Shown: positions 3,708 to 22,383 of the stretch, one piece after another
Layout: each line of letters opens with the position of its first letter
Numbering within the stretch: position 1 is the stretch's first letter
Source: Escherichia coli
GTDB lineage: Bacteria > Pseudomonadota > Gammaproteobacteria > Enterobacterales > Enterobacteriaceae
NCBI RefSeq assembly: GCF_003334255.1
Contig: NZ_QOWU01000028.1
DNA: 59,824 bases
Direction: 5' to 3' (one strand)
The notes under the pieces: generated by a model
Seen by the model: the letters and a program-made list of their open reading frames with translations, nothing else
Database searches by the model: none
What the model was told of the DNA's origin: nothing
Program-made: the position numbers and the translations under genes

Positions 3708-4733
3708 TTAACGCACGGGCGGTGCGTACTGAATACCGCCGTTATTCCAGAGATTATTTTGCCCACGTTTAATTTTCAGCGGGCTTTCTGAACCTACGTT
3801 ACGCTCAAAAATTTCCGAGTAGTTACCCACCTGTTTGATGATGTTATAGGCCCATTTATTATCCAGCTTCAGATCCTTGCCGTAATCGCCTTCTTTACCC
3901 AGCAGATGTGCCATATCAGGCGTTGCTGGATTAGCCGCTTTTTCATCGACGTTCTGGGAATTGATGCCCATCTCTTCAGCATTCAGCATGGCGAAAAGCG
4001 TCCAGCGTACAATCGAGAACCATTCATCATCGCCACGACGAACTACCGGACCAAGCGGTTCTTTTGAGATAACTTCCGGTAAGACAATCCATTCAGCTGG
4101 GTTGCTTAATTTGATGCGCAGGGCATACAGTTGTGATTGATCCGAGGCCAGCGTATCGCAGCGACCAGATTCCAGTGCCTTCGCTGATTCGTCAGAGCGA
4201 TCGAAAGTCACCGGTGTGTACTTCATATTGTTTGCCTTGAAGTAGTCGGCGACGTTGAGTTCGGTATCAGTACCCGCCTGAATACAGACGGTAGCGCCAT
4301 CCAGTTCTTTCGCGCTTTTTAGCCCCGCTTTATCGTGCGTCAGGAAGCCAATGCCGTCGTAATAAGTGACGCCGGTAAATGCCATTCCCATCCCGGCATC
4401 GCGAGATGAAGTCCAGGTCGTATTACGGGAGAGCAAATCCACCTCCCCTGACTGTAAAGCGGTGAAGCGTTCTTTTGCAGTGAGCGGGGTATATTTCACT
4501 TTCGTGTCGTCACCAAATACAGCAGCGGCAACACCACGACAAATATCAACATCAATACCTGAAAACTTACCGTCAGCATCGGCATAAGAGAACCCAGGTA
4601 ATCCATCACTGATCCCGCATTGCACAAAACCTTTTTTCTGAACGGCATCAAGCGTCGCGCCAGCATGCGCCTGATTTGCAACGGCAAGCAGCACGCTGGC
4701 GGCAGCCAGTGTGGCTATCATCATCTTTTTCAT
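3708..4733 (-). CDS. yhdW: Periplasmic amino-acid-binding protein of ABC transporter
   Basis: 341-aa ORF with N-terminal signal peptide MKKMMIATLAAASVLLAVANQAHA; first gene of the yhdWXYZ cluster. Confidence 0.85.
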   Translation of the reverse strand: MKKMMIATLAAASVLLAVANQAHAGATLDAVQKKGFVQCGISDGLPGFSYADADGKFSGIDVDICRGVAAAVFGDDTKVKYTPLTAKERFTALQSGEVDLLSRNTTWTSSRDAGMGMAFTGVTYYDGIGFLTHDKAGLKSAKELDGATVCIQAGTDTELNVADYFKANNMKYTPVTFDRSDESAKALESGRCDTLASDQSQLYALRIKLSNPAEWIVLPEVISKEPLGPVVRRGDDEWFSIVRWTLFAMLNAEEMGINSQNVDEKAANPATPDMAHLLGKEGDYGKDLKLDNKWAYNIIKQVGNYSEIFERNVGSESPLKIKRGQNNLWNNGGIQYAPPVR

Positions 4734-4812
4734 AATGCTTCCTGTGAGGCGAAAATTATCGTTATAGGACGTTTGGGAAACGTCTTTTACCTGTCTGTGG
4801 CCATCCTCTTAT

Positions 4813-4830
4813 AAGCAAAAGTAGTGCCAG
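4813..4830 (-). promoter_or_regulatory. Candidate sigma-54 (-24/-12) promoter for yhdW
   Basis: Minus-strand CTGGCACtacttTTGCTT matches TGGCAC-N5-TTGC about 80 nt upstream of the yhdW ATG. Confidence 0.5.
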
Positions 4831-4900
4831 CTTTTGCGCACGATTTCGCGTCGCAATAAGCTGAGTGTAGACAGGAAATAATAAAAACAGCGCCCCGCAA

Positions 4901-4937
4901 TGGTGCGAAAATGAAACATGCGCCACATTTTGGCGCA
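4901..4937. promoter_or_regulatory. Dyad-symmetric NtrC-like enhancer candidate upstream of the sigma-54 promoter
   Basis: TGGTGCG ... TGCGCCAcatttTGGCGCA palindrome about 100 nt upstream of the -24/-12 element; half-sites resemble the NtrC TGCACCA consensus but spacing is 5, not 3. Confidence 0.35.
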
Positions 4938-5130
4938 AAATATTTACGCGTGTTTTACTAAGCAGAATAATGATTGTTAGCGTGAGTATATTTCTGGTGG
5001 GAAGTGTGAAAATTAAATTGATGCGTTATTTCGAAAGCAGCGAAATAACGCGATGTAACATGCTAAATCAGCAGGGAATTACCCAGCAGAATATAGCAAT
5101 ATTTTATCTTATGGAGAGATACTGTATCGT

Positions 5131-5156
5131 TAAAAAGAGCGCGGAACTCCGCGCCC
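5131..5156 (-). terminator. Intrinsic terminator after yhdV
   Basis: Minus-strand GGGCGCGGAGTTCCGCGCTC hairpin followed by TTTTTA, immediately 3' of the yhdV stop. Confidence 0.55.
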
Positions 5157-5163
5157 TGTTCAG

Positions 5164-5385
5164 TTATTTCGATAGAGCGATGATCCCCATCGTCAGGCCA
5201 GCAACAGCAGCTGCCCCGCCGGCAATAGCCCCAGCCGTTTCCCAGTTATCCTGAGTCGTGCCTTTCATACAGGTATTGGTGTGAACCAGACGACCCTGAT
5301 CGTCATAAACCGGAACGCAGGGCGAATCGTGAGCACAGCCCGCCAGCAATGCGGTGAGCAATGCCACAGGAATTAATCTTTTCAT
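5164..5385 (-). CDS. yhdV: Small lipoprotein
   Basis: 73-aa ORF with lipoprotein signal MKRLIPVALLTALLAGC and Gly/Ala-rich C-terminus. Confidence 0.85.
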   Translation of the reverse strand: MKRLIPVALLTALLAGCAHDSPCVPVYDDQGRLVHTNTCMKGTTQDNWETAGAIAGGAAAVAGLTMGIIALSK

Positions 5386-5604
5386 GGTGTTACCTCAGTA
5401 ATAAACGCTAACGCTTAATAAGTTAACTCTCTTATTAACGAGCTGAATGCCATTTTATCACCGGAGGTTATAAATCTTGCGGAATGAATAATGACAAATT
5501 ATGTGAATTGTAAAAATAGTGAAGGGAGCGGGAACTATAGAAAGCTTTTAAAGAGTGAGCAGAAGAATATCTTATTAATTTTTATGGGTTTCACTGGAAA
5601 TAAT

Positions 5605-20442: not shown

Positions 20443-22383
20443 ATGAGATTAACGACGAAATTTTCGGCCTTTGTTACGCTGCTCACCGGGTTAACAATTT
20501 TTGTGACTTTGCTGGGCTGTTCGCTAAGTTTCTACAACGCCATTCAGTATAAGTTTAGTCATCGCGTTCAGGCGGTGGCGACGGCGATTGATACCCACCT
20601 TGTGTCGAATGACTTCAGCGTATTAAGGCCACAAATTACCGAATTAATGATGTCGGCAGATATCGTTCGTGTAGACCTGCTCCATGGTGATAAACAGGTT
20701 TATACCCTGGCCAGAAATGGTAGTTATCGTCCAGTTGGCTCCAGCGATCTGTTTCGCGAACTGAGCGTTCCGTTGATAAAGCATCCGGGGATGTCGTTGC
20801 GTCTGGTTTATCAGGATCCGATGGGCAACTATTTCCATTCGTTGATGACCACCGCGCCGCTCACGGGGGCGATTGGCTTTATCATTGTTATGCTCTTCCT
20901 GGCGGTACGCTGGTTACAACGGCAACTTGCCGGGCAAGAATTGCTGGAAACCCGGGCTACTCGTATCTTAAACGGTGAGCGTGGCTCTAATGTGTTGGGA
21001 ACCATCTATGAATGGCCGCCCAGAACCAGCAGTGCGCTGGATACGCTGCTTCGTGAAATTCAGAACGCACGCGAACAACACAGCCGTCTTGATACGCTGA
21101 TCCGCTCTTATGCCGCCCAGGACGTGAAAACCGGCCTCAATAACCGACTCTTTTTCGATAATCAGTTAGCAACGTTACTGGAAGATCAGGAGAAAGTAGG
21201 TACCCACGGGATCGTGATGATGATTCGTCTGCCGGATTTCAATATGTTGAGCGATACCTGGGGGCACAGCCAGGTTGAAGAACAGTTCTTCACTCTGACG
21301 AATCTGCTGTCGACATTTATGATGCGCTACCCTGGCGCACTGCTGGCGCGTTACCACCGCAGTGATTTTGCTGCGCTGTTACCGCACCGGACGTTAAAAG
21401 AGGCAGAGAGCATCGCCGGTCAGTTAATCAAAGCCGTTGATACCTTGCCGAACAATAAAATGCTCGATCGCGACGATATGATCCACATTGGTATCTGCGC
21501 CTGGCGTAGTGGTCAGGATACCGAGCAGGTAATGGAACATGCAGAGTCTGCCACGCGTAATGCGGGATTGCAGGGCGGCAATAGCTGGGCTATTTACGAT
21601 GACTCGTTGCCTGAAAAAGGACGCGGTAATGTTCGCTGGCGTACGCTTATCGAGCAAATGCTCAGTCGCGGCGGCCCGCGCCTTTATCAAAAACCGGCGG
21701 TTACTCGCGAAGGTCAGGTTCATCATCGCGAACTCATGTGCCGCATCTTCGATGGTAATGAAGAGGTTAGCTCGGCGGAGTATATGCCGATGGTCTTGCA
21801 GTTTGGCTTATCGGAAGAGTATGACCGTCTGCAAATCAGCCGTCTTATTCCACTATTGCGTTACTGGCCAGAGGAAAATCTGGCGATTCAGGTTACCGTT
21901 GAGTCGCTGATTCGCCCGCGTTTTCAGCGTTGGCTGCGCGATACGTTAATGCAATGTGAAAAATCACAACGAAAACGCATAATTATTGAACTTGCAGAGG
22001 CCGATGTAGGTCAACATATCAGTCGTTTACAACCTGTTATTCGTTTAGTGAATGCTTTAGGGGTACGGGTAGCCGTCAACCAGGCTGGTTTGACGCTGGT
22101 AAGTACCAGTTGGATCAAAGAACTTAATGTTGAGTTACTCAAGCTCCATCCGGGGCTGGTCAGAAACATTGAGAAGCGAACGGAGAACCAGCTGCTGGTT
22201 CAAAGCCTGGTGGAAGCCTGCTCCGGGACCAGCACCCAGGTTTACGCCACCGGCGTGCGTTCGCGAAGCGAGTGGCAGACCCTGATTCAGCGCGGTGTTA
22301 CAGGCGGGCAAGGGGATTTTTTCGCGTCCTCACAGCCACTTGATACTAACGTGAAAAAATATTCACAAAGATACTCGGTTTAA
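20443..22383 (+). CDS. csrD: CsrB/CsrC sRNA decay factor with degenerate GGDEF-EAL domains
   Basis: 646-aa ORF with N-terminal TM segments and degenerate GGDEF/EAL region. Confidence 0.9.
   Translation: MRLTTKFSAFVTLLTGLTIFVTLLGCSLSFYNAIQYKFSHRVQAVATAIDTHLVSNDFSVLRPQITELMMSADIVRVDLLHGDKQVYTLARNGSYRPVGSSDLFRELSVPLIKHPGMSLRLVYQDPMGNYFHSLMTTAPLTGAIGFIIVMLFLAVRWLQRQLAGQELLETRATRILNGERGSNVLGTIYEWPPRTSSALDTLLREIQNAREQHSRLDTLIRSYAAQDVKTGLNNRLFFDNQLATLLEDQEKVGTHGIVMMIRLPDFNMLSDTWGHSQVEEQFFTLTNLLSTFMMRYPGALLARYHRSDFAALLPHRTLKEAESIAGQLIKAVDTLPNNKMLDRDDMIHIGICAWRSGQDTEQVMEHAESATRNAGLQGGNSWAIYDDSLPEKGRGNVRWRTLIEQMLSRGGPRLYQKPAVTREGQVHHRELMCRIFDGNEEVSSAEYMPMVLQFGLSEEYDRLQISRLIPLLRYWPEENLAIQVTVESLIRPRFQRWLRDTLMQCEKSQRKRIIIELAEADVGQHISRLQPVIRLVNALGVRVAVNQAGLTLVSTSWIKELNVELLKLHPGLVRNIEKRTENQLLVQSLVEACSGTSTQVYATGVRSRSEWQTLIQRGVTGGQGDFFASSQPLDTNVKKYSQRYSV

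Follow-up and report, generated by a model that had tools for sequence, protein, structure and literature searches.

The sigma-54 promoter of yhdWXYZ in Escherichia coli is preceded by two conserved blocks that are probably weak NtrC sites

In Escherichia coli, the glnAp2 promoter combines a -24/-12 element with two NtrC sites lying about three helical turns (32 bp) apart, centred at -113 and -81 from the start of the promoter motif and matching the NtrC consensus at 13 and 12 of 14 positions. The glnHp2 promoter likewise places NtrC sites and a sigma-54 promoter before a gene for an amino-acid binding protein; its NtrC sites overlap by 13-bp steps, each of them near consensus, so that there is precedent for alternative registers within a single stretch of DNA. 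The canonical NtrC box is TGCACCA-N3-TGGTGCA, in which the most conserved bases are GCAnnA...TnnTGC according to PMC8743547. The general amino-acid permease of Rhizobium leguminosarum, AapJQMP, provides a comparison at the level of transporters rather than promoters: it is homologous to the YhdWXYZ transporter, with YhdW the homologue of AapJ, and aapJQMP is positively regulated by nitrogen limitation (cited in bioRxiv 10.64898/2026.05.04.722672).

The yhdWXYZ operon of E. coli has itself been described as NtrC-regulated. ChIP-seq of NtrC in nitrogen-starved cells placed it at peak 17 with 16.2-fold enrichment, as compared with 71-fold at glnALG, 75-fold at glnHPQ and 40-fold at glnK-amtB in the same table, and the same authors cite an expression analysis for NtrC dependence of the operon (Brown et al., PMC4066584). 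The coordinates of the ChIP peak fall on the promoter or slightly downstream of it. As the glnA, glnH and glnK peaks are placed in the same way relative to their sigma-54 motifs, the offset between ChIP peak and enhancer stems from the data set itself. In addition, the NtrC-3 iModulon includes yhdWXZ along with rutABCD (PMC11748552), and yhdW stands in the RegulonDB list of sigma-54 promoters (PMC3118216). The first-pass annotation of this DNA had described yhdWXYZ as nitrogen-regulated and NtrC-dependent, which these sources bear out. AtoC was considered as an alternative activator and set aside; the AtoC paper names yhdW only within that same RegulonDB list (PMC3118216).

It has thus been shown that sigma-54 holoenzyme is present at the promoter, that NtrC is cross-linked there in nitrogen-starved cells, and that the operon takes part in the response to nitrogen limitation. 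Since a sigma-54 promoter yhdWp with NtrC regulation is already documented, its confirmation adds nothing new. What the present comparison of sequences adds is minor: a fine map of the enhancer, a conserved 13-nt box and a covarying stem. In the literature searched, which did not include Zimmer (2000) and Reitzer and Schneider (2001), we found no NtrC footprint or mutational mapping of sites at yhdW.

The window, by which we mean the whole stretch of 59,824 nucleotides that was analysed, derives from the E. coli chromosome. Many E. coli chromosomes match an 801-nt part of it (4600..5400) with 100% identity, and this part is found in 5400 of 5426 complete genomes. In the RefSeq annotation the genes run acrS, acrE, acrF, a gene for a small membrane protein (yhdV in K-12), yhdW, yhdX, yhdY and yhdZ, followed by an rRNA operon. 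The gene that the promoter serves is the following:

3708..4733, minus strand: yhdW, an intact open reading frame of 341 aa, encoding an amino-acid ABC transporter substrate-binding protein; yhdX, yhdY and yhdZ lie downstream.

The ATG is at 4733. The 300 nt upstream of the sigma-54 promoter are identical in K-12 MG1655 and in the window. Within the gene, MG1655 has one A missing at nt 68, corresponding to window position 4666 on the minus strand, and because of this loss yhdW is a pseudogene in K-12. During co-culture evolution under nitrogen limitation, K-12 repeatedly gained small deletions at the yhdW frameshift, and the authors of that work suggested that these deletions could restore transport. 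More recently, the yhdW transporter has been linked to host colonisation by Citrobacter rodentium and, in E. coli K-12, to antibiotic homeostasis (bioRxiv 10.64898/2026.05.04.722672).

Two observations concern the neighbouring yhdV side of the region. The yhdV–yhdW spacer contains, in a stretch not conserved among genera, an inverted repeat at 5023..5051 whose 11-nt arms, GCGTTATTTCG / CGAAATAACGC, match perfectly and are separated by 7 nt. At the 3' end of yhdV (5132..5193, minus strand) there is a sub-threshold Rfam match to the Salmonella sRNA STnc40, at 20.6 bits against a gathering score of 45.

The first-pass annotation had placed a sigma-54 motif, TGGCAC-N5-TTGC, on the minus strand about 80 nt before yhdW. 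We found it there, as TGGCACTACTTTTGC at 4829..4815 (minus strand); this is the sole match to the pattern in the whole window, in sense orientation relative to yhdW, with its GG and GC exactly 10 bp apart and its 3' end 82 nt from the ATG. The feature is as follows:

4814..4830, minus strand: yhdWp, the sigma-54 (-24/-12) promoter CTGGCACTACTTTTGCT, identical to a published ChIP-seq motif, with the GG at 4828/4827 and the GC at 4816/4815.

That the motif is a sigma-54 promoter, as the annotation proposed, is established by published work. Site OS34 of the E. coli sigma-54 ChIP-seq survey (PMC4591121) is the same 17-mer on the yhdW strand, with a fold-above-threshold of 29, a PSSM score of 12.5 and a predicted start 70 nt before yhdW. 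The EcoCyc column of that survey gives OS34 the letter ‘P’ and footprinted promoters such as glnA the letter ‘C’, which may stand for predicted and confirmed. PMC8743547 reports a genomic SELEX peak of RpoN holoenzyme at 3417032, between yhdV and yhdX. We found no mapped transcription start for yhdW in the literature searched; the published rule of 19 bp downstream of the motif centre predicts a start near 4803, 70 nt before the ATG. A yhdWp–gfp fusion has a perfect -24/-12 match, yet its activity was among the lowest of twelve sigma-54 promoters (PMC7045595).

Conservation was assessed in 80 enterobacterial yhdW loci with 90–99% protein identity, 79 of which have enough upstream DNA. The set covers Escherichia, Citrobacter, Enterobacter, Kosakonia, Phytobacter, Trabulsiella, Lelliottia, Leclercia, Siccibacter, Cedecea, Atlantibacter, Buttiauxella, Pluralibacter and others (more than 15 genera in all). 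The pattern TGGCA[CT]-N5-TTTGCT was kept in all 79 loci, its first base 92–116 nt upstream of the ATG, with invariant flanks and a variable spacer. Fixed flanks around a free spacer make a textbook footprint.

Farther upstream, the annotation had noticed a perfect 19-bp dyad, TGCGCCA-CATTT-TGGCGCA, and a half-site TGGTGCG. Both are present: the dyad at 4919..4937, with perfect 7-nt arms, a 5-nt spacer and a centre (4928) that is 106 bp from that of the promoter (4822), and the half-site on the plus strand at 4901..4907, reading CGCACCA on the minus strand. In a weighted alignment, conservation starts abruptly at 4940 and runs to the ATG, whereas the sequence farther upstream is unconserved. 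The dyad and the half-site belong to two conserved blocks:

4919..4937, minus strand: enhancer block 1 (distal, centred about -125 relative to the predicted start), the 19-bp dyad TGCGCCA-AAATG-TGGCGCA, which in the 17-bp NtrC register reads TGCGCCAAAATGTGGCG at 4921..4937.

4891..4907, minus strand: enhancer block 2 (proximal, centred about -96 on the same scale), CGCACCATTGCGGGGCG, which includes the half-site CGCACCA and in most genera reads TGCACCA-NNN-CRGGGCG.

Anchored on TGC, the spacing of the two blocks is exactly 30 bp in 79 of 79 loci. Per-position counts were made on 75 loci, leaving out the Cedecea clade. The consensus of block 1 is TTT-T1 G2 C3 [T/G]4 C5 Y6 R7 N W W T11 G12 T13 G14 G15 C16 [G/A/T]17 [C/T]18 A19, in which T11, G12, T13, G14 and G15 are invariant and G2, C3, C5 and C16 are conserved at 98–100%. 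That of block 2 is TTT-[T/C]1 G2 C3 A4 C5 C6 A7 NNN C11 R12 G13 G14 G15 C16 G17, in which G2, C3, C5, G15 and C16 are invariant and A4, C6 and G13 reach 96–98%. The pairs G2C3 and G15C16 are therefore conserved at 98% or more in both blocks, exactly at the positions of the 17-bp NtrC box. In the Cedecea clade (loci L063, L064, L068, L069 and L076) the sigma-54 promoter and the 30-bp distance between the blocks are retained; in the region about 60–150 nt upstream of that promoter, block 2 is an NtrC site of canonical 17-bp form, TGCACTATTTCGGCGCA, and block 1 is TGCTCTGAAATGCGCCG.

The motifs could in principle be functionless chance matches. The promoter pattern alone has an expectation of 0.25 per window and occurred at least once in 24 of 100 shuffles, while perfect 7+7 dyads of arbitrary sequence are expected, by our estimate, about 3.7 times per fixed spacer in 60 kb. 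Because neither the promoter pattern nor the dyad is improbable alone, the case for them rests on context, namely their orientation and position before yhdW, conservation in 79 of 79 loci, their matrix ranks and the published ChIP data. The fixed architecture, this complete conservation and the published ChIP and gSELEX signals refute chance, to which we assign a negligible probability.

The annotation had also cautioned that the dyad spacing differs from that of the canonical NtrC site. This caution was justified, as the best sites of other E. coli NtrC promoters have a 3-nt spacer. In a control, eleven other NtrC-dependent promoter regions of MG1655 were scanned with every spacer from 0 to 7. 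The best matches fell at spacer 3 for glnA, glnH, nac, astC, rutA and the promoter-proximal glnK site; gltI and ddpX gave off-spacing matches only, and argT, patA and yeaG gave no NtrC-type match at any of these spacers. It is thus not unusual for a genuine NtrC target to have weak or atypical sites, as the scans of these last five regions indicate. Halves of the TGCGCCA and GGCGCA types are present in the best canonical-format sites of astC, rutA and glnH. The only match with a 5-nt spacer that reached at least 10/14 in the control regions was in glnH, where a canonical site is read 2 bp shifted.

In the 17-bp register each yhdW block matches 10 of 14 consensus positions, while the 19-bp register gives the best raw match, 12/14. 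A half-site matrix was built from ten control sites; as these were chosen by consensus the matrix is circular, and it was used for ranking only. With it, blocks 1 and 2 score 10.8 and 12.2 bits in the 17-bp register, as compared with 12.7–19.9 bits for the ten reference sites, and rank 5th and 3rd of about 60,000 window positions at the canonical spacer. At the 5-nt spacer they rank 1st and 3rd. The two spacer-3 matches, spaced 30 bp apart, precede the window's sole sigma-54 motif. The best spacer-3 match in the window is located elsewhere, at 21323..21339, where the canonical-format 17-mer TGCGCTACCCTGGCGCA scores 17.8 bits; this 17-mer belongs to the coding sequence of csrD, and could be either a chance match or an intragenic NtrC site.

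Block 1 might accordingly be read in the 19-bp register, TGCNCCA-N5-TGGCGCA, bound either by NtrC in a non-canonical mode or by a second dimeric regulator that co-operates with NtrC at block 2. The highest half-site scores come from the 5-nt spacer: in E. coli it reaches 19.0 bits, more than any other position of the window, and its mean over the orthologs is also the best, 13.0 as against 11.7 bits. In block 1 there is little or no variation at T13, G14, G15, C16 and A19, as one would expect if TGGC..A formed the inner portion of a half-site. Furthermore, most genera have T at position 4 of block 1, and T13 and G14 are invariant where the NtrC consensus has G13 and T14; such invariance, read from the alignment, would not be explained by a merely degenerate half-site. 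An Lrp ChIP signal at yhdW (bioRxiv 10.1101/276808) indicates that other proteins bind there. Against the 19-bp register, the outer G and C of its right half (positions 17 and 18), which are the most conserved bases in NtrC logos, are conserved at only 61% and 64%, with TGGCTTA in Citrobacter, and its left half is TGCTC in most genera. The perfect dyad is confined to E. coli. An independent 5-nt-spacer site matching at least 10/14 was found in none of the other NtrC promoters examined, the lone glnH match overlapping a canonical site. We know of no E. coli regulator with the motif TGCNCCA-N5-TGGCGCA. This use of block 1 therefore seems unlikely to us.

The dyad might also act as RNA, forming a hairpin or weak intrinsic terminator against read-through from yhdV or an upstream promoter, rather than as a protein site. 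A terminator scan flags both blocks, the first as a 7-pair stem followed by TGTTTCATTT and the second followed by CGCTGTTTTT, and the E. coli dyad folds with -10.8 kcal/mol. In other genera, however, the hairpin is weak (-1.4 to -8.5 kcal/mol) and the changes are not compensatory, so that sequence rather than pairing has been kept. Moreover, yhdV already has a strong terminator-like hairpin with a T-run at 5133..5160, and no Rfam family matches at the dyad. As the hairpin is specific to E. coli and the changes elsewhere are uncompensated, we reject a terminator at the dyad, and regard an RNA role as very improbable.

The phylogenetic footprint settles most of the worry about spacing, as the conserved core of both blocks appears to stand in the 17-bp register. 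Given that the outer G and C are variable in the 19-bp register, the odd spacing of the E. coli dyad most likely reflects a local pattern superimposed on a canonical, weak NtrC site. The exact contacts of NtrC at both blocks are ones that we infer. A weak enhancer fits the moderate ChIP signal, the low reporter output and the absence of the locus among the top in vitro gSELEX peaks, in so far as these are represented by the intergenic NtrC sites of Table 2 in PMC8743547, which do not include yhdW; the study counts 93 peaks in total (Table S3).

The DNA between the enhancer and the promoter is also conserved. The distance from block 2 to TGGCA is 78–80 bp in 30 loci and 89–91 bp in 49 loci, with none between. 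As the two distance classes differ by one helical turn, the enhancer keeps the same side of the helix turned towards the promoter in both. Two features lie in this interval:

4863..4875, minus strand: a 13-nt box, CCTGTCTACACTC, with the core CTACACT[CGT] in 75 of 80 sequences and each position at least about 80–90% conserved.

4834..4856, minus strand: a covarying stem-loop, TTGCG...CGCAA, directly upstream of the -24 element, supported by alignment pair counts.

In the pair counts of the stem, 78% of cells are paired, as compared with 28–53% when the partner is slid, and 57 cells carry double changes, as compared with 22.5 ± 5.1 in shuffles, none of 500 of which reached 57. The inner pairs show up to six standard pair types, and the folds of individual sequences have a mean z of -2.4. 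There is no T-run following the stem on either strand. It is the loop that lengthens by one helical turn between the two distance classes, and its length sets the distance between enhancer and promoter in such steps. The five loci of the Cedecea clade have neither box nor stem. The 3' arm of the stem, GCAAAAG, is complementary to the -12 region, CTTTTGC (4815..4821 / 4831..4837).

The box resembles the -10 element of sigma-S and sigma-70 promoters, and matches KCTAYRCT, which we take to be the sigma-S type -10 consensus. A scan for sigma-70 promoters gave no match on the box; its only matches, at 5012..4985 (minus strand) and 4943..4971 (plus strand), are in poorly conserved sequence. An IHF-like core, ACTCAGCTTATTG, lies at 4854..4866 (minus strand) after a T-rich tract; it overlaps the box and has one mismatch to WATCARNNNNTTR, a level at which there are 128 matches in the window. 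Several other genera have a perfect IHF core, AATCAGGCGGTTG, in the stem loop instead. In an Rfam scan of 4600..5300, no family came close to threshold within the regulatory region. LexA, PurR, GlrR, RutR, Nac, CRP and the marbox were compared by eye, as consensus sequences, with the dyad, box and stem, and none fitted.

Downstream of the promoter, the predicted start defines a leader:

4734..4803, minus strand: predicted 70-nt 5' leader of yhdW, with a conserved start and a hairpin.

The leader start, ATGGCCACAGACAGGT (4789..4804, minus strand), is highly conserved, and the hairpin, GACGTTT-CCC-AAACGTC (4768..4784, minus strand), shows compensatory-looking differences in the consensus of other genera (GGCGTT...GAACGC). 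ATGGCCACAGACAGGT also contains a 9-nt perfect complement to nt 153–161 of GcvB (CCUGUCUGU). We did not retain pairing between GcvB and the leader as a candidate: it is marginal, the best local duplex, of -19.2 kcal/mol, being equalled by 3 of 40 shuffles and the whole-length energies being no better than shuffled.

Box and stem, lying between the NtrC sites and the -24 element, might together form an undescribed cis-regulatory module, either a second promoter or a structural DNA element, a suggestion that we put forward tentatively and think rather doubtful. As a second promoter of the sigma-S or sigma-70 type, the module may give a transcript with a conserved 5' hairpin, and its -35 region may be overlapped by NtrC site 2, by analogy with glnAp1. 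A preprint reports activity of the yhdW promoter in LB, with induction by lomefloxacin (bioRxiv 10.64898/2026.05.04.722672); as this would not be expected of a purely NtrC-driven promoter, the observation lends weak support to a second promoter. As a structural element, box and stem may instead fix the geometry between enhancer and promoter in steps of one helical turn.

We believe it highly probable that the region is yhdWp, a sigma-54-dependent, NtrC-activated promoter of yhdWXYZ with two weak NtrC sites in the canonical register. On this reading, sigma-54 RNA polymerase would sit as a closed complex on TGGCAC-N5-TTGC, where published ChIP and gSELEX show occupancy. By analogy with glnAp2, phosphorylated NtrC would bind the two sites upon nitrogen limitation; these are centred near -96 and -125, a separation of three helical turns. 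Each would be a 17-bp site with one good and one degenerate half, TGCGCCA-AAA-TGTGGCG and CGCACCA-TTG-CGGGGCG, with the perfect 19-bp dyad an overlay specific to the E. coli lineage. By the same analogy, dimers on both blocks would seed an oligomer that loops the DNA to the closed complex and opens the promoter by ATP hydrolysis, and transcription from near 4803 would yield the 70-nt leader. Imperfect sites would make a weak enhancer, in line with modest occupancy and output.

The likeness to glnAp2 extends to geometry. The sites are 30 bp apart at yhdW and 32 bp apart at glnAp2. In E. coli yhdW their centres are at -99 and -69 from the motif start; in the 89–91 bp class of yhdW loci they are at about -110 and -80, where they nearly coincide with the glnAp2 sites. 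The yhdW blocks are poorer matches in the same register (10/14 as compared with 13/14 and 12/14), their NtrC ChIP enrichment is lower (16-fold as compared with 71-fold; PMC4066584) and reporter output is low (PMC7045595). At glnH the alternative registers lie a full 13-bp step apart, whereas those of yhdW are 2 bp apart and could not be occupied jointly.

The yhdW promoter controls an amino-acid transporter that scavenges nitrogen, and the conserved map tells the experimenter which bases to mutate there: the blocks in their 30-bp register, the length classes that differ by one helical turn, the 13-nt box and the stem.
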